From: an uncultured Acidobacteriota bacterium
Lineage (GTDB): Bacteria; Acidobacteriota; Vicinamibacteria; Vicinamibacterales; Fen-181
Direction: 5' to 3'
Length of the DNA stretch: 64,000 nt
NCBI GenBank assembly: GCA_963724775.1
Contig: CAVRWB010000016.1
Location: 28,815-92,814, forward strand
The notes below the pieces were generated by a model that did not search any database, had not been told where the DNA came from, and saw nothing but the letters and a program-made list of their open reading frames with translations. Below, in pieces: positions 6,548 to 37,671 of the stretch; positions within the stretch are counted from its first letter, which is position 1; each line of letters starts with the position of its first letter. Both the position numbers and the translations under genes were made by a program.

Positions 6548-6617
6548 AAGCTGAGCCGGGCTCCGGCGTGGCGCAAAGCTCCAGCCTTGGGCGTGGCGCA
6601 AAGCTCCAGCTTTGCGA
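6548..6617. promoter_or_regulatory. Three direct repeats of GGCGCAAAGCTCCAGCYTTG in the divergent cysK / proline-dehydrogenase promoter region; the last copy forms the palindrome GCAAAGCTCCAGCTTTGC
   Basis: Read directly from the sequence. The same palindrome family recurs at 7579-7599 and 63373-63392. Confidence 0.4.
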
Positions 6618-6630
6618 GGGAGACCATCAG

Positions 6631-7565
6631 ATGTCGATCATGCGGAGCGTGCTTCTGGCGGGTGCCGAGAGCGTGTGGTTGCGCGAGCACGCCATGCGGG
6701 CCCCGTTCGTCCGCCGCTCGGTTTCGCGCTTCATGCCGGGCGAGTCGATGGCCGAGGCGCTCGACGCGTGCCGGCGGCAGCAGGCGGAGCGCGGCACTGG
6801 AACGATCCTCACGCACCTCGGCGAGAACCTCGCGTCGATTGCCGAAGCCGGCCAGGTGACCGAGCACTACCTGCAGCTGCTCGACCGCATCCAGGCGGCG
6901 GGACTCGATGCGCAGGTGTCGGTCAAGCTGACGCAGCTGGGACTCGACCTGGGCCCCGACGCCTGCGCGGCAAACCTGCAGACCCTCGTCGATCGCGCCG
7001 AGGCGCGCGGCAACATGATCTGGATCGACATGGAGAGCAGCAAGTACGTCGATCCGACGCTGGCGCTGTTCCGCCGCGTCCGCCAGCGTTCGGCGCGCGA
7101 CCGGCCTGTGCCTCCAGGCGTACCTCCACCGCAGCGCTGCCGATCTCGATTCGCTGCTTGCCGCTGGCGCCCGCTATTCGCCTGGTCAAGGGCGCCTACA
7201 GGGAGCCACCCGAGATCGCGTTCCCCAAGAAGGCGGACGTGGACGAGAACTACTTCCGGCTGGCCGCTCGAATGCTCCAGCCCGACGTGCCACGAGGCAC
7301 CATGCTCGGTGTGGGCACGCACGACGACAGGCTCATCGAGCGGCTGAGGGCCGTCATCGCGGAGCACCACGTTCCCCCCACCGCCTATGAGTTCGAGATG
7401 CTGTACGGCATCCAGCGGCCCCTTCAAGCGCGGCTGGTTCGCGAAGGCGCGCCGCTCCGGGTGCTGATCAGCTACGGCGAGTTCTGGTTCCCGTGGTACA
7501 TGCGGCGGCTGGCCGAGCGGCCCGCCAACGTGCTGTTCGTGGCAAAAAGCATGTTCGGAGGTTGA
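6631..7565 (+). CDS. Proline dehydrogenase (monofunctional PutA-like), two apparent frameshifts (about 7095 and about 7185)
   Basis: ATG at 6631 with a GAGGGAG RBS. N-terminal part is in the 6568 frame and a middle segment (LCLQAYLHRSAADLDSLLAAGAR) in a third frame. The C-terminal part (IRLVKGAYREPPE...GTHDDRLIERLRAV...ISYGEFWFPWYMRRLAERPANVLFV) is in the 6612 frame. Confidence 0.7.
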
Positions 7566-8100: not shown

Positions 8101-9478
<1,378 letters not shown>

Positions 9479-9485
<7 letters not shown>

Positions 9486-10555
9486 AGGCCTCCAGTCTGG
9501 GTTCCGGCAATGGCCAGGAGATCGGATACGACAGCCACTCCTGTCGCATCGCCGCCCGCGCCGCGCCCGGCGTAGAGCGTGTCGCCGCCGTACTCGCCGG
9601 TGACGAGGACCGCGTTTTCGCAGCCTCGGACGCGGGCGAGCGGTGAGTCGAGGGGCACGAGTTCCGGGCCAACCGACGCGCGGACCGCTTTCAGTTGTCC
9701 GTATCCGAATTCCCGTTTTCCGTTTTCCGTCTTCGGTTTCCCGTTTCGGCCGTCCTGGTCGCGTCCGGCCGGGACGACCGTTGCCCGCGACACCTGCCTG
9801 ATGGTGGCGCCGCGCGCGTGCGCGGCGTCGAAATCCTGCAGGGTGACGCCGGAGATCGACCCGCACGCAATCTCGGACGATGCGATGGCGGTGTCGAAGC
9901 CCACCGAGCAGAGGATCGAGAGCTTGGCCCGCGCGTCGAACCCTTCCACGTCCGCCGCCGGGTCGGCCTCGGCGTAGCCGAGCGCCTGCGCCTCCGCCAG
10001 GGCGTCGTCAAAGGCGATACCGGCCTCTTCCATCCGGGTGAGGATGTAGTTGCACGTGCCGTTGATGACGCCGGTGATGGCGGTGAGCCGGTCGCCCGCC
10101 AGGCCGAGACGGACGGCGTCGAGGACGGGGACGCCGCCAGCCACGGAGGCGCCGAAGCGGAACTGCCGTCGCTGTCGTGCGGCGAGGGCGTTGAATCGGC
10201 GCCCCTCGTCAGCGACGAGCTGCTTGTTCGCCGTGACGACCGACTTTCCCGCCAGCAGGGCGCGGGTGATCCACTCGCGGGCCGGCGAGACGCCGCCGAC
10301 CAACTCGACGAGGACGTCGATGTCCGGCGCGAGGAGATCGTCGAAGCGGGCGGTCCACTCGACGTCGGCGCGCAGCCAGGCCGGCCGCGGCTTCGACTCG
10401 CTGCGCGCGCAGACCCGCACGAGGCGGACGGCCTCGTCTTCGCGCCGCTCGAGGATCCGAGCCACCGCGGTGCCGACCGTCCCGAAACCCACGAGGCCCA
10501 CGCGCACGGCGGGCCGCACCGGCCAGACCGATCGCAGGGCGGATGTGCGTGGCAT
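9479..10555 (-). CDS. hom: Homoserine dehydrogenase with in-frame simple-repeat insertion
   Basis: [13 protein letters not shown]-binding motif, ...TANK..., and a C-terminal ACT-like region. The stop is 1 bp before the metY start, so they form an operon. Residues [18 protein letters not shown] are encoded by the CCGTTTTCCGTTTTCCG repeat at 9713-9750. Confidence 0.8.
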
Positions 10556-10570
10556 GCTGTCCTCCAGTAC

Positions 10571-10612
10571 AAAAGAAAACCCGCCGACAGGTGGTCATCC
10601 TGCCGGCGGGTT
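10571..10612 (-). terminator. Intrinsic-terminator-like hairpin plus U-tract immediately upstream of the hom RBS (attenuator / riboswitch expression platform candidate)
   Basis: On the mRNA (minus) strand: AACCCGCCGGCAGG-AUGACCAC-CUGUCGGCGGGUU followed by UUUCUUUUGU. Then GGAGGA and the ATG of hom. Confidence 0.55.
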
Positions 10613-10639
10613 GCGGTGCTCCGATGGGGTCTGATGCGT

Positions 10640-10723
10640 CTAATCGCGGAGCGGGCGCAAGCCACCGACACGGATGCCCTTCGGCATTCGCATCGACATC
10701 AGGCTCGCCCCGCGCATCAACAT
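10640..10723 (-). other. Candidate 27-aa Met-rich leader peptide uORF (MLMRGASLMSMRMPKGIRVGGLRPLRD) upstream of hom-metY
   Basis: Translated directly from the sequence. It has 5 Met codons, including an LMSMRM run, and no convincing SD, so this is speculative. Confidence 0.2.
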
Positions 10724-10781
10724 GACTTCACTGTCGCAGCAGTCGCGTCCGAGATCAACAGGGAAGTCGGGGTATGACACA

Positions 10782-10870
10782 AGTCGACGGAGTCGACGGA
10801 GTCAACGGAGTCAACGGAGTCGATGGAGTCGACGGAGTCAACGGAGTCCACGGAGTCAATCGAGTCAACC
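10782..10870. repeat. Tandem array A: about 10 copies of the 9-bp unit GTCRACGGA in the divergent hom / esterase promoter region
   Basis: gtcgacggagtcgacggagtcaacggagtcaacggagtcgatggagtcgacggagtcaacggagtccacggagtcaatcgagtcaacc. It is the inverted complement of array B. Confidence 0.8.
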
Positions 10871-10929
10871 CCTGCACTCCTTCACGTTGCCCTTTGCACT
10901 TCGGGTCCAGTCCGCTACCATTTGCGCCC

Positions 10930-12606
10930 ATGTCCCGATATTGCTGCTCCACGGTGCGCGGTGCGGTGGTCGTCGCGATCCTGTCGGTCCTTTCGCTCCC
11001 GTCGCCCGCGAACGCGCAAGCGAAGGCGGTTCGAGCCGGGACCGGGCTCCGGATCGAGATCTCGTTTCCCCAGGCTGCGCATGGCGAGCCGATCACCGGC
11101 CGCGTCTTCTTCATGCTGTCGAAGGCCGGCGACCGCGAGCCGCGGCTGCAGGTTGGCCGGACGGGGGTGCCGTTCTTCGGCCGCGACGTGGAGAAGCTCG
11201 CGCCGGGTCAGGCAGCCGTCATCGACGAGTCCGACCTCGGGACGCCGGTCGAGAGCCTGCGCGACATCCCGGCCGGCGACTACTTCGTCCAGGCGATGGT
11301 GAACGTCTACTCCGAGTTCCGGCGCGCCGACGGCCACGTGCTGTGGATGCACGACGACCAGTGGGAAGGGCAGCAGTGGAACCGGTCGCCGGGAAATCTC
11401 TACAGCGAGGTGCGACAGGTGCGGCTCGATCCCTCGAAGGGTGGGGTCGTGCGCCTGGTCGCCGACAAGATCATTCCGCCCGTACAGGTGCCGCCCGACA
11501 CGCCGTGGGTGAAGCGCTTCAAGTTCCAGAGCGCGTCGCTCACGAAGTTCTGGGGGAGGCCGATCTACCTCGGCGCCACCGTCCTGCTGCCGCGCGACTA
11601 CGACAAAGAGGAAACGCGCTACCCGGTCAACTACGTCCAGGGCCACTTCTCCCTGGCGCCGCCGCTCGGCTTCAACCCGGACTTCAAGCCGACCGAGCGC
11701 GCGGCCTACAACATCGCCCTCGACTGGATGAAGGACGACTTTCCCCGGATGGTCGTCGTCACCTTCCAGCACCCCACGCCGTACTTCGACGACTCGTACG
11801 CGGTCAACTCGGTGAACGTCGGGCCGTACGGCGACGCGATCATGCAGGAGCTGATCCCGGAGGTCGAGAAGCGGTTCCGCGTCATCAGGGAGCCGTATGC
11901 GCGCATCCTGTCCGGCGGTTCCACCGGCGGGTGGGAGTCGCTCGCGCTGCAGATCTTCCACCCGGACTTCTTCGGCGGCGCCTGGTCGTACTGCCCCGAC
12001 TCGGTGACGTTCACGGACGTCGAGGGCATCAACATCTACCAGGACGCGAATGCCTTCTACAAGGAGTTCGGATGGAGGCGGGTGCCGACGATCAACAGCC
12101 GCGAGGTCAACGGGCAAGTGCGCCAGACCTCCGAGCAGCGGAACCACTTCGAGCTGGTGAACGGCACGAAGGGCCGGTCTGGCGAGCAACTGGACATCTG
12201 GTCCGCCGTCTTCGGCCCTGTCGGGAAGGACGGCTACTTCGAACCGCTGTTCGACAAGAGGACGGGCGTGATGAACCCGCAGGTCGCCGAGTACTGGGGT
12301 GAGCACTACGACCTGCTCCGCTACCTCCAGAGGAACTGGGCGGCCCTCGGCCCGAAACTCGTGGACAAGCTGCACGTCTACACCGGCGACGCCGACACGT
12401 ACTTCCTCAACAACTCCACGCGCGAGCTCGAGCAGTGGATGAAGACGACGACGAATCCGCACTACGCGGGCTTCTTCCTTTACGGCGATGGCAAGCCGCA
12501 CTGCTGGGCCGGCCCGGGAACGGCCGGCGACCGCGTCAAGGAGATGGCCGGGTTCATCGCCGCCCACAAGCCAGACGGTGCCACGACCCCCTGGTGGCGG
12601 TACTAA
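10930..12606 (+). CDS. Secreted esterase (enterochelin/esterase-D 'putative esterase' family, alpha/beta hydrolase)
   Basis: Signal peptide MSRYCCSTVRGAVVVAILSVLSLPSPANAQ. GGSTGGWES is a GxSxG nucleophile elbow. The ORF has no frameshift. The upstream in-frame VDG-repeat extension would be encoded by array A and is probably not translated. Confidence 0.6.
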   Translation: MSRYCCSTVRGAVVVAILSVLSLPSPANAQAKAVRAGTGLRIEISFPQAAHGEPITGRVFFMLSKAGDREPRLQVGRTGVPFFGRDVEKLAPGQAAVIDESDLGTPVESLRDIPAGDYFVQAMVNVYSEFRRADGHVLWMHDDQWEGQQWNRSPGNLYSEVRQVRLDPSKGGVVRLVADKIIPPVQVPPDTPWVKRFKFQSASLTKFWGRPIYLGATVLLPRDYDKEETRYPVNYVQGHFSLAPPLGFNPDFKPTERAAYNIALDWMKDDFPRMVVVTFQHPTPYFDDSYAVNSVNVGPYGDAIMQELIPEVEKRFRVIREPYARILSGGSTGGWESLALQIFHPDFFGGAWSYCPDSVTFTDVEGINIYQDANAFYKEFGWRRVPTINSREVNGQVRQTSEQRNHFELVNGTKGRSGEQLDIWSAVFGPVGKDGYFEPLFDKRTGVMNPQVAEYWGEHYDLLRYLQRNWAALGPKLVDKLHVYTGDADTYFLNNSTRELEQWMKTTTNPHYAGFFLYGDGKPHCWAGPGTAGDRVKEMAGFIAAHKPDGATTPWWRY

Positions 12607-12615
12607 TACGGTTTG

Positions 12616-12798
12616 ACTCCGTTGACTCCGTCGACTCTGTTGACTCCGTTGACTCCGTTGACTCCGTTGACTCCGTCGACTCCGTCGACTCCGTTGACTC
12701 CGTCGACTCCGTTGACTCCGTCGACTCCGTTGACTCCGTCGACTCCGTTGACTCCGTCGACTCCGTTGACTCCGTCGACTCCGTCGACTCCGTTCAGC
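12616..12798. repeat. Tandem array B: about 20 copies of the 9-bp unit GACTCCGTY (reverse complement of array A) filling the gap between the esterase stop and the nei stop
   Basis: Read directly from the sequence; the unit alternates GTT and GTC at the end. Confidence 0.85.
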
Positions 12799-13730: not shown

Positions 13731-16700
13731 CTATTCGCGGGGCGGCGCGGCCTGGAAGCCGCCGGGGCGGCGGAGGAAGCCGGCCTCGAGCAGGAAGGGC
13801 GCCATCGGGTGATCCGCCGCTGACCGGCCGTCGATCTCCGCAACGAGCATTCCGTCGCGGTCGCTGCCGCCCGTCGCCAGCCGATACAGTGTCTGCGCAA
13901 CCTCGCGCCCGGTGACGCTCCGCGCCGGCTCGTCCTCGGGCAGGAACGTCAGGAACTGCCGGTCCGCGCGCCCGACGTACGCCGCCAGCATGCCGTTGAC
14001 GATGATGACGCCGGCGCCGACCGAGCGGGTGGGGCCGCGGCCGGACGTGATGGACGAGGCGTGGGGCAGAGCTTCCGCCTCCGCGCGAAGCGCTTCGGCG
14101 CGACCTCGCCGTAGCCTTGGCGAAGGCGGGCCAGCTTTGCCTTCAGGTCTCGGCGACCTGGAAGTCGGCGCGACACCCTGTTCGGCCGACATGGAGGTCG
14201 GCGCGCTGCTTCGCGCCGCCTCGCCCGGCCATCTGAGAATCGCCCCATACGGATTGGCCGGATCCGTCGCCGCCAGGTAGACGGTCTGCGGCGTCTCCGG
14301 TTCGTCGCGTACCGAGCGCAAGAGATCCACGGCCGAGGGGAGCGCGAACTGCGTCGCTCCCAGGCCGCCCACGAAGTAGCCGCGGCGGATCCGCCCCGCC
14401 TCCTCCATCGCCTTCAGCACGTCATACACCGTGCTGAAGCCGCCGGGCAGGTTCTCCACCGCGATTGTCTCCCGCGTGACGATGCCGTGGCGCGTGAGGA
14501 GCTGCGAGGCGACGGCCGCCGCCCACTCGGTGGGGGAGGGATGCGTCCCGACGCGCGCTTCCACGAGGCTCCATCGTCCCTCCGCGGTCGCGGGCGTCAG
14601 GCGGCGCGACCGGAACGGCTGCGTTCGGTCGTGGCGCCGCGAGCGTTTCACTGGCGGCTGCGTGAAGGCGCGCAGCGGGTGGAACGTGTCGTTGGTGACC
14701 AGCCCTCGCCACACCAGGTCCCACAGCGTGTCCACCGTCTCGCGCGGGTAGCCGCCCCCGGCCGCCTGGTGGACGGCGGCGAAGAACGACGCACCCTCGC
14801 GGCGCAGGTGCTGCACGATTCGGGTGGCGCGATCGTCGAGTTCTCCCGCGGCTGCCCGCGGCGGCAGCAGCTTCGCCAGGTGATCGGCCAGGTAGACGGC
14901 GATGCGCCCGTCCCGGTCGCCAAGCGGCTCCACGCCAACCCACGCGATCTCGCCAGCGCTGGTGAGCACGTCCAGGTCGCCCGGCCGGTAGCCGTCGAGG
15001 CGCGACGGCAGGATCTCGCGCTCGAGAAGCGACGCCGGCAGCGGCGCGCCCTGGAGCTGCTCGATGGCATCGAGCAGCGCGTCGAGACCGGATCGTCGGA
15101 CGCCGAGGCCATGCCAGGTCGTCGCGAGGCGGCCCAGCGCAGCCGCGCTCACCGGTTCCACTTCGTGCCGCAGCTTCGCCAGCGAGCGCTGGCGGATCTG
15201 CGCGCAGCACGTCCGCCTCGCACCACTCCCGCCCCACCCGCCCGGGCGTGAACGCGCCCTGCAGCACGCGTCCGCGCGCCGCGAGTTGCGCGAGGGCGCC
15301 AGCGACGGCTCTCGGGGGCAGTCCCAGGCGGGCGGCGACGGCCTCGGTGGGGAACGGCCCGTGCGTCCGCGCGTAGCGCAAGACGAGATCGCCGAGCGGG
15401 ATCGGCAAGCGGTTCGAGGAGCGCATCCGGGAGGCCGAGCGGCAGCGGGGCGCCCAGCGCATCGCGGTACCTGGCGGCATCTTCCACGGCGATGAACCGA
15501 GGCGAACCCGCCACCGGCACCTCGATCGCGCGCCTGTCGGCGACGAGCTCGCGAATCGAGCGTGCGACAATCCCGCTCTCGGAACGCGCGCGAATCTCTT
15601 CCGAATCCAGGTCGCCCAGGCGCAGCAGCATGTCGTGGAGTGCGTCGCGGCTGCGAGCCCGGTAGCGGGGCTCGATCCGCTGCAGCTGCTGTTCCACCTC
15701 GTCGATCACCGCGGGATCCAGCAGCTCCCGCAGTTCCATGTCGCCGAGGAGGTCCTTCAGCTGCGACTGGTCCACCAGCAACGCCTGCGCCCGCCGCTCC
15801 GCGAGCGGCGCGTCGCCGTCGTAGATGAAGTTGGCGGTGTAGGCGAAGAGCAGCGACGAGGCGAACGGCGACGGGGCCTCGGTGTTGATCGTCACCGTTC
15901 GAATCGACCGGCTGCCGACGCGGCCGAGCAGGTCGACGAGCGCCGCCACGTCGAATTGATCCCGAAGGCACTCGCGGTAGGTCTCGAGCAGGGCCGGGAA
16001 CGAGCCGAACCGCGACGCGACGGCCAGCAGGTCGGATGCGCGCTTGCGCTGCTGCCAGAGCGGCGTGCGTGCGCCCGGGCGGCGCCGGGGCAGCAGCAGG
16101 GCGCGGGCGGCCACCTCCCGGAACCGCGCGGCGAACAGCGCGGTGCCACCGAGCTGCCGGAGGAGGAGACGCTCGACCTCCTCGGCAGGCGGCACCAGCA
16201 GCGCGGCGTCCGGCGGCTCGTCGGTGTCCGGGAACCTCACGACAAAGCCATCGTCGGACCACATCGTCTCGACCTCGATGTCGCGCTGCTCCCGGATGCG
16301 GGCCTCCGCGACCATCGCCCACGGTGCCAGGACCTGGCTGCCGTAAGGCGCGAGGACACACACTCGCCAGTCGCCGAGCTCGTCGCGATAGCGCTCGATG
16401 ACGAGCGTCCGATCATCGGGGACCGCCTGGGTGGCCCGCTCCTGGTCGGACAGGTACTGCAGCAGGTTCTCCGCCGCGGTGCGGTCGAGGTCGTGATCCT
16501 TGATCAGCCTGGCGAGCGCTGCGCCGCGCGGCATCCCGCGCAGCTCGCGCACCAGGCGCCCGATCGCCATGCCGAGTTCCAACGGCCGGCCCGGCCGGTC
16601 GCCGTGCCAGAAGGGCATCTTCCCGGGTTCGCCGGGTGCCGGGGACACCGCCACCCGGTCGTGCGTGATCTCCTCGATGCGCCACGTGGACGCGCCGAGC

Positions 16701-18458
16701 ACGAACGTCTCGCCGACCCGCGACTCGAAGACCATCTCCTCGTCCAGCTCGCCCACGCGCGCCGCGCCCTTGGGCGCACCGGCGAGGAACACGCCGTAGA
16801 GACCGCGGTCGGGAATGGTGCCCGCGTTGGCGATGGCCACGCGCCCGGCGCCCTGCCGCGCGGTCAGCGTCCCGCCGATCCGGTCCCAGGTGAGGCGAGG
16901 CCGCAGTTCCGCGAACTCGTCCGACGGGTAACGCCCGGACAGCATGTCGAGGACGCCCTCGAAGATGCCGCGCGAGAGGCTGGCATAGGGCGCGGCGCAG
17001 CGCACGGTGGCGAGGAGGTCGTCCACGCGCCACGGATCGGTCGCGACCGTGGCCACCACCTGCTGCGCGAGCACGTCGAGCGGGTTGCGCGGGTAGCGCG
17101 TCGCCTCGACGAGCCCCTCGTGCATGGCACGGGTGACGGCGGCGCAGGCGACCAGGTCGCCGCGGAATTTCGGGAAGACGACGCCCTCGCTGACCGCGTT
17201 CACCTGGTGGCTGGCGCGGCCGATTCGCTGCATGCCGCTCGCGACCGACGGGGGCGCTTCGATCTGGATGACGAGATCGATGGCGCCCATGTCGATCCCG
17301 AGTTCCAGCGACGAGGTGGCGACGAGCGCCGGGATTCGTCCCGCCTTCAGCGCGTCCTCGATCTCGACGCGTTGCTCGCGCGCCAGCGAGCCGTGGTGCG
17401 CCCGCGCGATCGTCTCGCCCGCCAGCTCGTTCAGGGATGCCGGCCAGGCGCTCCGCGAGGCGCCGGCTGTTCGCGAAGAGCAGCGTGCTCCGGTGAGCGC
17501 GAATCAGGTCGAGCAGGCGCGGGTGGATGCTCGACCAGATCGACGGCGCGGCGGCACCCTGCGCGGCCGGTCCGCTTGGGATCTCGATCGGCTTGGCCAG
17601 CTTCGCCAGGTCCTCGACCGGCACCTCCACCTTCAGCGCCAGCCGCTTGGGCTGCCGTGCGTCGATGACGGCGACGGGCCGGTACTCGATGGCTGGCGCG
17701 TCGGCGGAGAACTCGTCGTGCAGCTCGCCACGGAGGTCGGGCGCGCCCTGGGGTTTCCGCTTGGAGGTGTGGCGCGGACCTTCCGGCTCCTTCTTGACCG
17801 CTCCGCCGAGGAACCGCGCGACTTCGTCGAGCGGCCGCTGCGTGGCAGACAGGCCGATGCGCTGAAGCGTTCGCGGGCAGACGGCCTGCAGCCGCTCGAG
17901 CGACAGCGCGAGATGCGCGCCGCGCTTGGTGGGCACCAGCGCGTGGATCTCGTCCACGATGACCGTCTCGACCGAGCGAAGCACCTCGCGGGCCCGGGAC
18001 GAGAGCAGGAGGTAGAGCGACTCGGGAGTCGTGATGAGGATGTCGGCCGGCTCGCGCAAAAACCGCGCGCGTTCGGCGGACGGCGTGTCGCCCGTGCGGA
18101 CCGAGACGGCGGGTGGCGTGAACGACTCGCCCCGCGTTTGCGCGAGATTGGCGATGCCTGCGATGGGGGATCGCAGGTTCCGCTCGACGTCCACCGCGAG
18201 CGCCTTCAGCGGCGACACGTAGAGGACCCGGCACCGCGCGGAGCGCTCGGGCAGCGGTGAGAACATCACCCGGTTGACCGCCCACAGGAAGGCCGCGAGC
18301 GTCTTCCCGCTGCCGGTCGGCGACAGGATGAGCGTGGACTCCCCCCGCGCAATCGCCGGCCAGCCGAGCGCCTGCGGGGTCGTGGGCTCGCCGAACGAGG
18401 CGGCAAACCACTGCGCCACGGCGGGGTGGAACAGGCTCAGCGGGGACGGACGGGGCAT
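13731..18458 (-). CDS. lhr: Lhr-type large ATP-dependent helicase (DEAD/DEAH + Lhr C-terminal domains), at least 3-4 apparent frameshifts
   Basis: N-terminal LILSPTGSGKTLAAFL (motif I) and VIVDEIHAL (motif II). The middle contains MGAIDLVIQIEAPPSVASGMQRIGRASH (motifs V/VI). The winged-helix and Lhr C-terminal domains are spread over the 16413, 15149, 14422 and 13731 frames; one shift is near 17445 (LAERLAG|LNELAGE). Confidence 0.8.
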
Positions 18459-18474
18459 GGGGAATTCTATGATG

Positions 18475-18570
18475 GGATTGACGATTGACGATTGACGAGT
18501 GGCGATTGACGAGTGTGACGGCGACCGTCCCGAATTCGTCAATCATCAGTCGGCAATCGTCATTTGCCGA
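18475..18570. repeat. (GATTGACGA)n-type heptamer/nonamer tandem repeat plus a related TCGTCAATC...GGCAATCGTCATTTGCC segment between the lhr start and the upstream gene
   Basis: gattgacgattgacgattgacgagtggcgattgacgagtgtgacgg. Confidence 0.6.
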
Positions 18571-18984: not shown

Positions 18985-19067
<83 letters not shown>

Positions 19068-19095
19068 GGGCAAGCTGGCGACCTTTCTTGACCGT

Positions 19096-33134: not shown

Positions 33135-34527
33135 ATGCACGCGCACATCCTGGTCTTCGAGCCGCCCGGTCAGTCCCTTGCCGACCTGCGCGGCGTCATC
33201 GAGCGGGTTCTTGCGGACTCGGCGGACGTGGAGACGGTCTCCGACGCCTCCGCCTTGCTTCAGCGGGTTCGCCGCGACGCGTCGCTGGACCTGGTCGTGG
33301 TTCCCTATTCGGGGAATGAGGAGGCCGGAGGCCGGCGCGAGCGTGCGGAGCCTGAGGGCCTGCGATGCCGAGTTGCCGATCGTGGCGGTGGCGACGCACG
33401 GCGACGTGAAGCTGGCCGCGGAGGCGGTCAGCGCCGGTGCCACGGACTTCCTCGTGCGCGGCGATCGCCTCGAAGAACGGGTGCGAACCCTGCTCGGAAA
33501 GCTGCGGCGCATCGTCCTGCTGTTGCGGCAGAACCGGTCGCTCGCCGAGCAGAACCGGCAGCTGCGGGGAACTGATGCGGAGCGGTCTCGCCTCGTCGGT
33601 GAGTCGCTGCCGATCCGGGAGGTGCGGGAGCGCATTGCGCGCGTCGCGGTGATTCCGCGCCCCGTGTTGATCCTCGGCGAGCGCGGCACGGGCAAGGAGC
33701 TGGTGGCGCGGGCGATTCACGCCGCGTCGGGGCGAACCGACGGGCCGTTCGTTGCCGTCAACTGTGCGGCGTTTCCCGAAGCCCTGCTCGAGAGCGAGCT
33801 GTTCGGCCACGAGAAGGGCGCCTTCACGGGCGCCGACCGCCTCGTGCCGGGCAAGTTCGAGCAGGCGTCGGGCGGGACGCTCTTCCTCGACGAGATCTCG
33901 CACATGCCGACCGCCTTCCAGCAGAAGATCCTGCGGGTGGTCGAGTACGGCACGTTCGCCCGGGTTGGCGGCACGCGGGACGTGCGGGCCGACGTACGCG
34001 TGGTCGCCGCCAGCAATGCCGACCTCGAGCAGGGCATTCGAGACGGATGGTTCCTCGCCGACCTGTACGATCGCCTCGCGTTCGACGTGGTGCGGGTGCC
34101 GCCGCTGCGCGAGCGGCGGGGCGACGTTCCGATCCTGGCGACGCACTTTCTTCGCGAGTTCCTCCGCGAGGTGCCCGCGCTCGGTGAGAAGCCGTTTGCC
34201 GCGGACGCGATGGCCGCGCTGGAGCGTTACGCGTTCCCGGGCAACGTGCGCGAGCTGAAGACCATCATCGAGCGCGCGGCCTACCGCGACACCACGCAGG
34301 AGATCAACGTCGAGGACCTCGCGCTGCCCCGCGACGCGACCAACGGCGCGGAAGGCACCTTCGAAGAGCGCGTGGCCGCCTACGAACGCCGGCTCGTCGA
34401 GCATGCGCTGGCGGCCGCGGGAGGCAACCAGGCGGAGGCCGCGCGCAGCCTCGGCCTGGCGTATCACCGGTTCCGGTACTACCTGCAGAAAGGCAGGACA
34501 GCGCGGACCTCGGAACGGCGAACGTAG
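33135..34527 (+). CDS. Sigma-54-dependent transcriptional activator (NtrC family) with apparently degenerate receiver domain; apparent frameshift near 33330
   Basis: AAA+ sigma-54 interaction domain (GERGTGKELVARAIH, GAFTGA, ESELFGHEKGAFTGA) and a C-terminal Fis-type HTH. The N-terminal receiver lacks the usual DD pocket and the phospho-acceptor Asp (ILVFEPPG...LDLVVVPYS). Confidence 0.75.
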
Positions 34528-34565
34528 AACGGAGAACCGAGAACTGAGAACGTAGAACGGAGAAG
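34510..34565. repeat. GAACGKAGAAC-type tandem repeats overlapping the last codons and stop of the sigma-54 activator gene
   Basis: ctcggaacggcgaacgtagaacggagaaccgagaactgagaacgtagaacggagaagcg. Confidence 0.6.
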
Positions 34566-37322: not shown

Positions 37323-37671
37323 GAAACAATCTAAGAAGAGAGACACAGAGACACGGAGGCGACCCCGGGGGAACCCTTCGGGCGGTCGGCGGAGCCGACC
37401 GCCGCCGGCGGGTGGGGGGACGCGCCGCGCGAACACGCCTCCATGCGCCCCGGGCGTGCTCGCTCGGCGCGTCCCGCCTCCCGCCGCCGCGCGCCGATGG
37501 CGCGCGCGAAGGGCGGAGCGGTCGCTCGGCTCTGTGTCTTTTCCGGTCTTCTCTGTGCCTCTGTGCCTCTCTTCTTGATTCGTCAGGTGGTGGGCGGTAC
37601 CTGTGGGCGGAGCAAATCGCCAAATCGCCAAATCGTGAAATCGCCAAATCGCAAAATGGCCAAAATCTCCC
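37323..37671. repeat. Repeat-rich intergenic region: GAGACACAGAGACAC, its inverted complement TCTGTGCCTCTGTGCCTC, and (AAATCGCC)n x6 immediately before the glycyl-radical enzyme start
   Basis: Read directly from the sequence 37330-37370 and 37540-37670. Confidence 0.6.

Follow-up and report, generated by a model that had tools for sequence, protein, structure and literature searches.

A probable methionine-codon leader-peptide attenuator upstream of the hom-metY operon in an uncultured Acidobacteriota bacterium

The DNA analysed here, a 64-kb stretch of contig CAVRWB010000016.1 from an uncultured Acidobacteriota bacterium of soil (referred to as the window), carries on its minus strand hom, the gene for homoserine dehydrogenase, followed by metY, the gene for O-acetylhomoserine sulfhydrylase. 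Upstream of hom lies a leader that consists of promoter-like hexamers, a short upstream open reading frame (uORF) rich in methionine codons, and an intrinsic terminator hairpin with its U-tract (Table 1). An earlier reading of the same letters, the original prediction, had described this segment as an attenuator or riboswitch-like leader. Judged from its sequence and conservation, the leader is quite probably a ribosome-mediated leader-peptide transcription attenuator that would sense charged elongator Met-tRNA and control read-through into hom-metY.

The GC-rich hairpin and U-tract that had been noticed 5' of the hom ribosome-binding site were found on the minus strand as a perfect stem of 14 bp, AACCCGCCGGCAGG-AUGACCA-CCUGUCGGCGGGUU, which contained 10 G-C pairs and was followed by UUCUUUUGU. 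The hairpin itself was as predicted, but the loop had 7 nt rather than the 8 nt given earlier. The folding energy of the terminator was -29.6 kcal/mol, while none of 200 shuffled sequences folded as well (z = -4.3), and the leader as a whole was also more structured than its shuffled counterparts (z = -3.9). The terminator and U-tract together (10612-10568) sat 10 nt before the hom ribosome-binding site. The uORF had the 27 codons and five Met codons claimed for it, ended 27 nt before the terminator hairpin and was located 84 nt upstream of hom. A segment designated region 2 was a near-copy of the 3' arm of the terminator.

Table 1. Features of the hom leader and the genes that follow it (positions in the window; for the Met codons, positions of the first bases)
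Feature	Position	Strand	Description
-35-like hexamer	10753..10758	-	TTGATC; consensus match only
-10-like hexamer	10730..10735	-	GACAGT; ends 6 nt before the uORF ATG
Leader peptide uORF	10640..10723	-	MLMRGASLMSMRMPKGIRVGGLRPLRD; 27 codons + TAG
uORF codons			ATG TTG ATG CGC GGG GCG AGC CTG ATG TCG ATG CGA ATG CCG AAG GGC ATC CGT GTC GGT GGC TTG CGC CCG CTC CGC GAT TAG
uORF Met codons (n = 5)	10723, 10717, 10699, 10693, 10687		uORF nt 1, 7, 25, 31, 37
Hairpin 1:2	10651..10715	-	Anti-antiterminator or pause hairpin; minimum free energy folds of 9 leaders and RNAalifold consensus
Arms of hairpin 1:2			Met-codon cluster AUGUCGAUGCGAAUGCC in the 5' arm; 3' arm is GGCAUCCGUGUCGG plus extension
Region 2	10662..10675	-	AUCCGUGUCGGUGG (written also as CGUGUCGGUGG, GUCGGUGG); proposed 5' strand of the antiterminator
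Intrinsic terminator hairpin, regions 3 and 4	10578..10612	-	14 bp, 7-nt loop
U-tract	10568..10579	-	UUUUCUUUUGU(A)
hom Shine-Dalgarno sequence	10560..10565	-	GGAGGA; 4 nt before the ATG at 10555; outside the terminator stem
hom	9479..10555	-	Homoserine dehydrogenase, 358 amino acids; short type without ACT domain
metY	8202..9482	-	O-acetylhomoserine sulfhydrylase; start overlaps the hom stop

Both the hairpin and the uORF were singular within the window. A custom scan of both strands recovered the hom-leader hairpin as the sole stem of 9 bp or more with TTTT after it (0-1 such stems were found per mononucleotide shuffle), and among open reading frames no longer than 70 codons the uORF alone had 4 or more ATG within 11 codons. 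The probability of at least 4 further ATG in 26 codons, computed from the ATG frequency of the window, was about 1e-4. Each is the rarest item of its kind in the window, and the two lie side by side, directly 5' of a methionine-pathway operon. Two other explanations of the hairpin were rejected, a REP-like repeated element, as the 12-mer of the stem was found at this site only, and a terminator of the upstream gene, as that neighbour is divergent and encodes a signal-peptide, esterase-like protein that starts at ~10933 on the plus strand. Since only ~22 nt separate the terminator from the hom ATG, hom can be transcribed only by read-through of the hairpin. Gene ends in this genome are apparently without canonical strong terminators, so that the regulatory one stands out, and the occurrence of a sole strong intrinsic terminator in 64 kb suggests that the lineage uses such terminators selectively.

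A search with Hom recovered relatives at 57-77% identity. Nine independent loci were compared, namely the window and L083, L084, L086, L095, L098, L099, L100 and L101 (Hom identity 57-72%), and the recovered loci probably belong to the Vicinamibacterales. The same order is probable for the bacterium of the window, whose Lhr helicase has its best named match, at 82% identity, in a sequence with that label. Two further loci, L081 and L082, had leaders 100% identical to that of the window and flanking DNA that was 94.8-99% identical, and probably represent the strain of the window itself or a very close relative of it. The leader was present upstream of hom-metY(-metX) in all nine loci with a common layout, in which promoter-like elements were followed by the ATG, the uORF, its stop codon, the terminator with its U-tract and the operon. 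The retention of the terminator in every locus supports the earlier view that an intrinsic terminator within the hom 5' leader serves as a regulatory platform. Its core, CCCGCCG/CGGCGGG, was invariant, while the upper stem varied with some compensatory changes, and a T-rich tract followed the stem in each case.

The -35-like hexamer, TTGAYN, was found in eight of the nine loci (L086 had no good match), 17-18 nt upstream of a -10-like hexamer that in the relatives read GATAGT, GATACT or TATACT. This second hexamer ended 6-9 nt before the ATG of the uORF in all nine loci, and no consistent Shine-Dalgarno sequence preceded the uORF across them. On these two grounds the uORF is probably leaderless or nearly so.

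No true Met-rich uORF was found 5' of hom in 79 control loci from other phyla, which were distant Hom homologues (35-43% identity) taken from the 80 loci recovered in a search of genome contigs. The single apparent hit, a Met-rich reading frame (…EPMMMPTMGELMV…) upstream of hom in two Verrucomicrobiaceae loci (L056 2773-2886; L058 453-614), was rejected as the antisense of the purE N-terminus (MSSPIVGIIMGSSSDW…). The eight loci in metagenome contigs that matched the uORF core pattern ATGTCNATGCGNATGCCNNNNGGCAT were all chance matches within coding regions and added no further leaders.

The minimum free energy (MFE) folds of all nine leaders contained a long hairpin, with the Met-codon cluster in its 5' arm, followed by the terminator. 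The RNAalifold consensus independently recovered both structures, and the core helix of the Met-codon hairpin showed pairing in 91.5% of cells. A stalled ribosome was mimicked by masking the RNA to 12 nt past a Met codon and omitting region 4, the 3' arm of the terminator. Under these conditions, region 2 (GUGUCGGYGG) paired with the 5' arm of the terminator, CCCGCCGRCAGG at 10610-10596, in the MFE folds of nine out of nine leaders. The proposed partner of region 2 in this arm, designated region 3, includes CCCGCCGGCAGG and CCGCCGGC. The resulting 2:3 duplex was stronger than that of dinucleotide shuffles in all nine leaders, with a Fisher combination of 2e-4 that overstates the independence of the loci because they are related. 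The antiterminator of the window unit thus represents a conserved pairing potential rather than a proven structure.

Four of the relatives (L086, L099, L100 and L101) had a second uORF between the first terminator and hom. The second uORFs, of which MTPAPSTVSPVSMAMPMRSMAAMSMRRRGGG is an example, were unrelated in sequence to the first and had a length of 31-55 codons, 6-8 of them Met, and each was followed by its own terminator, GGGGCCGUCAUCCGC...GCGGGUGACGGCCC, with a U-tract. The end of the second uORF, GCGGAUGAC, which includes the UGA stop, was a perfect or near-perfect complement of the terminator 5' arm GUCAUCCGC and could form a 9-bp antiterminator. As the stop codon lies within the antiterminator strand, a ribosome terminating there would cover the strand, while a ribosome stalled at the Met codons would leave it free. 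This placement, which follows the textbook logic of trp-type attenuation, is the strongest single argument for the proposed mechanism. The second uORF of L099 (2734-2901) has 55 codons, of which 10 specify Thr and 6 Met (…TTVATATTMTVRMWTMSTMRMQ…). Its composition hints that the tandem leader in some lineages may integrate the supply of Thr and Met, both of which depend on homoserine.

The first uORFs of the nine loci had 26-29 codons with 4-7 Met, and each of the 13 uORFs in the nine loci had 4-8 Met. In the close group the core reads M-S-M-R-M-P-x-G-I-R, in the distant group M-P-M-P-M-P-M-S-M-G-M or similar, so that the Met count was held or raised where the sequence of the uORF diverged (MSMRMP vs MPMPMPMSMGM). 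The indels in the uORF alignment, 3, 6 and 3 nt in length, were all in frame, as were 77 of the 80 ATG trinucleotides in the 13 uORFs; the other three were the ATG within GGATGA at the stop. This pattern of in-frame ATGs and indels is what the sequences of translated regulatory codons would be expected to show, unlike those of an aptamer.

An aptamer is the essence of one alternative, that the leader is an undescribed metabolite riboswitch for S-adenosylmethionine (SAM), S-adenosylhomocysteine (SAH), Met or another ligand, in which the AUGUCGAUGCGAAUGCC hairpin would be the aptamer, the terminator the expression platform and the open reading frame incidental. Such a device would be in keeping with the frequent control of metY and hom by SAM riboswitches in other phyla, with the excess of structure in the leader over shuffled sequences and with a nucleotide conservation that extends to synonymous sites. 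However, the supposed aptamer consists of a long, simple hairpin and has no multi-helix junctions, and the incidental status of the reading frame is difficult to reconcile with its in-frame ATGs and indels. Moreover, the diverged leaders of L099-L101 altered the sequence but kept or increased the Met codons, and the second tandem unit, which differs in sequence, again has a Met-rich reading frame.

Scans with the Rfam 15 models covered the region 10400-11100 at E <= 10, the whole window at the gathering score and the eight orthologous loci at E <= 1. The first gave only noise, such as miRNA and lncRNA models that scored well short of the gathering threshold, and there was no match in the whole window or in the orthologous loci. 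The covariance models of the SAM riboswitches (SAM-I, II, III, IV, I/IV, V and VI) and SAM/SAH were among those without a match, as were the T-box leader model and the Trp, His, Thr, Leu and Phe leader families, to which the likeness is in apparent working only. Control by a SAM riboswitch, which had been suggested for this operon, was therefore not borne out, and a riboswitch of any kind is a most unlikely explanation. Of the two possibilities first raised, the leader peptide was the one retained, since the uORF, its Met codons, their frame and the alternative pairing were conserved in all nine loci. Of the refuting findings named with the original prediction, the lack of an Rfam match was the only one to occur.

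A different alternative is that the uORF is an independent small gene encoding a Met-rich peptide with a function of its own, the hairpin being its terminator and hom being expressed by leaky read-through. The core M-S-M-R-M-P-x-G-I/M-R-V-G-G is conserved at the amino acid level, the M-x-M-x-M arrangement is reminiscent of Met motifs that bind Cu(I), and most loci have a cupredoxin gene downstream of the operon. The cupredoxin gene, however, is convergent and separate, the peptide has neither a signal peptide nor a hydrophobic segment, and the second uORFs have Met richness alone, not sequence, in common. The gene upstream of the leader varies (esterase-like, EamA, DUF362, D-Ala-D-Ala ligase-like, VTT domain), whereas in the recovered loci the element always directly adjoins hom-metY. 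Finally, a stop codon built into the antiterminator, as in the second uORF, is sensible only for regulation. An independent gene is therefore very unlikely.

The attenuation mechanism that these features suggest would operate as follows. Transcription would start at or a few nucleotides from the AUG of the uORF, which would be translated while it is being made. When Met-tRNA is plentiful, the ribosome would cross the Met cluster (codons 9, 11 and 13) and reach the UAG, so that region 2 would either be covered in passing or pair again with the Met-codon arm, with the ribosome at the stop codon between regions 2 and 3. The 14-bp terminator would then form and transcription would end at ~10570, ahead of the hom ribosome-binding site. 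When Met-tRNA is scarce, the ribosome would stall at codon 9, 11 or 13 and occupy region 1. Hairpin 1:2 would be held open, leaving region 2, just beyond the ribosome footprint, free to pair with region 3 as it emerges. The terminator could not form and hom-metY would be transcribed. In the relatives, the same control would extend over hom-metY-metX.

Several observations weigh against this mechanism, 1) the individual shuffle p values for the 2:3 duplex ranged from 0.01 to 0.38, and GC-rich RNA pairs easily, 2) the antiterminator showed no significant covariation (the observed values of the five measures were reached in 64-195 of 500 shuffles) because the helix is kept mainly by conserved sequence, so that of the alternative folding sought at the outset the conserved pairing was recovered and the covariation was not, 3) the stop codon of the first unit is ~20 nt downstream of region 2, unlike that of trpL, which is inside, and the block of 2:3 pairing by a terminating ribosome is less direct in the first attenuator, 4) the synonymous sites of the core AUGUCGAUGCGAAUGCC are almost invariant, which needs a constraint at the RNA level that is explained by the hairpin but equally well by a site for a ligand or protein, 5) starvation for Met would also lower fMet-tRNA and initiation at the uORF, which would favour termination and oppose induction, and 6) in this strain the operon looks degraded, with the metX remnant lost and metY truncated, and the genes that follow the fully conserved leader are perhaps in decay, unless this is an assembly error. 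The conflict with initiation may explain why Met attenuators are rare.

In a third alternative, the trigger is something other than tRNA charging and would be either an RNA-binding protein, TRAP- or PyrR-like, acting on the repeated AUGNCG units, or a nascent peptide arrest responsive to Met or SAM. TRAP binds spaced triplet repeats, and the AUG codons of the uORF occur with a similar 6-nt spacing (AUG-NNN-AUG-NNN-AUG). Also conserved is the stretch of peptide after the Met cluster, although that conservation falls on region 2, where pairing is itself a constraint. The repeats number only 3-6, are located inside a stable hairpin and are always in frame with a promoter-proximal start codon, and no candidate binding protein was linked to the locus. 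A trigger of this kind is highly improbable. In the nascent-peptide version, the conserved M-S-M-R-M-P-x-G-I/M-R-V-G-G would sense methionine or SAM in the exit tunnel, much as TnaC senses Trp and plant CGS1 senses SAM as nascent arrest peptides. That analogy is a long shot, but if it holds the leader would read the metabolite itself rather than the charging of the tRNA and would avoid the problem of impaired initiation.

The preferred reading, attenuation by stalling at Met codons, has much in common with the enterobacterial attenuators (trpL, hisL, pheL, thrL, leuL and ilvL). Both have a short reading frame rich in codons for the end product and a terminator just before the first biosynthetic gene, and the mutually exclusive 1:2, 2:3 and 3:4 pairings of those attenuators have a proposed counterpart in the hom leader; the stop codon in the antiterminator strand, a feature of trpL, is found here in the second unit of the relatives. 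The differences are that AUG would be the codon sensed, in an alternating M-x-M-x-M arrangement instead of consecutive codons, that the uORF is probably leaderless without a Shine-Dalgarno sequence, and that the stop codon of the first unit is downstream of region 2. There is no similarity to the Rfam leader families at the level of sequence or covariance model, and the phylum is Acidobacteriota. The SAM riboswitches (SAM-I, SAM-II, SAM-IV and others) that precede metY, metX and hom elsewhere likewise place a premature terminator in the leader of a methionine gene, but they sense the ligand directly by an aptamer, none of which was detectable here, where the signal would be the charging of Met-tRNA.

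In the literature searched, the regulators described for methionine pathways are repressors such as MetJ (E. coli), SAM riboswitches and T-boxes. Full-text searches returned no described Met attenuator in Acidobacteria, and Met-codon leader peptides appeared only as two predictions, in Campylobacter and Streptomyces. In Campylobacter jejuni, MetL, a peptide of 20 amino acids with 3 Met codons encoded by a short RNA upstream of metBA, was predicted from differential RNA sequencing (PMC3847290). MetL resembles the present case in that a leader peptide with Met codons is predicted on a short, terminated transcript ahead of methionine biosynthesis genes, and differs in the downstream genes and the phylum (PMC3847290). 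The metL of Streptomyces lividans, located upstream of metNIQ, is a leaderless short reading frame with 2 internal Met codons, 3 Cys and many Thr that was proposed to act as a Met-dependent attenuator, although the authors saw no typical intrinsic terminator (PMC8079986). Like the uORF of the hom leader, which is probably leaderless, it is a leaderless short reading frame before a methionine-related operon. However, it controls a transporter, rather than biosynthesis genes behind a canonical terminator, and its peptide, MSTTSDRTPATEATTTPGARCMCRRMCAF (PMC8079986), has no evident similarity to the uORF described here.

The leaderless poly-Cys short reading frames of mycobacteria, which act as attenuators of cysteine operons (bioRxiv 10.1101/834739; earlier prediction in PMC1262725), are similar in that a leaderless uORF has codons matching a sulfur amino acid pathway. 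Their Cys codons occur in runs and they have no conserved terminator hairpins (PMC1262725), while the hom leader has both a canonical terminator and a proposed antiterminator. For the methionine operons of Actinobacteria, Seliverstov et al. reported no RNA element (PMC1262725).

As an attenuator, the hom leader would form a new Met-specific family, in which the uORF is probably leaderless and part of the clade has a tandem duplication, but would involve no new principle. It is much better supported than the two earlier predictions, being conserved, sometimes tandem, and provided with a candidate for every part of a classical attenuator. It offers a concrete element with which to test whether stalling at AUG codons can serve as a sensor even though Met is also needed for initiation. 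In practical terms, it could be used to annotate the regulation of hom-metY-metX in these genomes and to seed a model for a new RNA or leader family.

The identity of the downstream genes was established by family models. Hom matched NCBIfam NF004976 at 347.7 bits (cut-off 205) as well as Pfam PF03447 and PF00742. Within the hom coding sequence there is a tandem duplication with a 28-nt period (9685-9746) that coincides with an insertion of ~23 amino acids, giving a protein of 358 amino acids compared with 334-342 in the closest relatives. The metY gene of the window was recognised by PF01053 and by tblastn with the intact MetY of L083, which itself matched TIGR01326 at 635.7 bits (cut-off 495). 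In this assembly, metY has local frameshifts and a 3' truncation in which the last ~22 codons are gone. One relative has MetY (TIGR01326) and MetX (NF001209) intact next to Hom, and the three proteins together constitute the direct-sulfhydrylation route to homocysteine.

In L081 and L082, metX is a C-terminal remnant (residues ~280-341). A further deletion of ~440 nt in the window (8132-8210; L082 5330-5760) takes the upstream part of the metX remnant and the last ~22 codons of metY, and the sequence at the junction is ...GACATCATCGAA joined to TCAGCAGGTTCTGGAGGG. Several genes of the window are split over overlapping reading frames by local frameshifts, metY (8202-9482) and also proline dehydrogenase (6568-7565) and the Lhr helicase (13731-18542). 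The frameshifted stretches of metY differ among the window, L081 and L082, which points to indel errors in a long-read assembly rather than true pseudogenes.

Upstream of the promoter-like elements, the motif TGTGTCATA (10773-10781, minus strand) was present 12-14 nt before the -35-like hexamer in six of the nine loci (the window, L083, L084, L086, L095 and L098) and in some of these had a partly palindromic form, such as GTGTCATAGGACAC in L084. It was absent from L099-L101, which carry the second attenuator instead. The motif could be a transcription factor site, a possible second layer of control.

Two tandem arrays of a 9-bp unit (GACTCCGTY, ~10 and ~20 copies), located at 10782-10869 and 12613-12794, lie in inverted orientation on either side of the esterase-like gene (~10933-12606). 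The T-variant of the unit contains TTGACT, and the first array (array A) adjoins the promoter region of the hom leader. For the second (array B), 20 copies were counted in the window and 28 in L082, but no more than ~3 could be recognised in L081, and this array is either variable, like a variable number tandem repeat, or misassembled. Tandem arrays of short period (7-36 nt) are unusually common, with about a dozen in the 64 kb, for example at 8101-8173, 18476-18512, 18987-19072, 34513-34564 and 37613-37664. Such arrays seem to characterise intergenic DNA throughout the lineage, and those upstream of the hom promoter in relatives are built of other units, GCATTCT x7 and a 14-mer x3 at 2430-2530 in L099 and a ~22-mer at 2270-2330 in L083.

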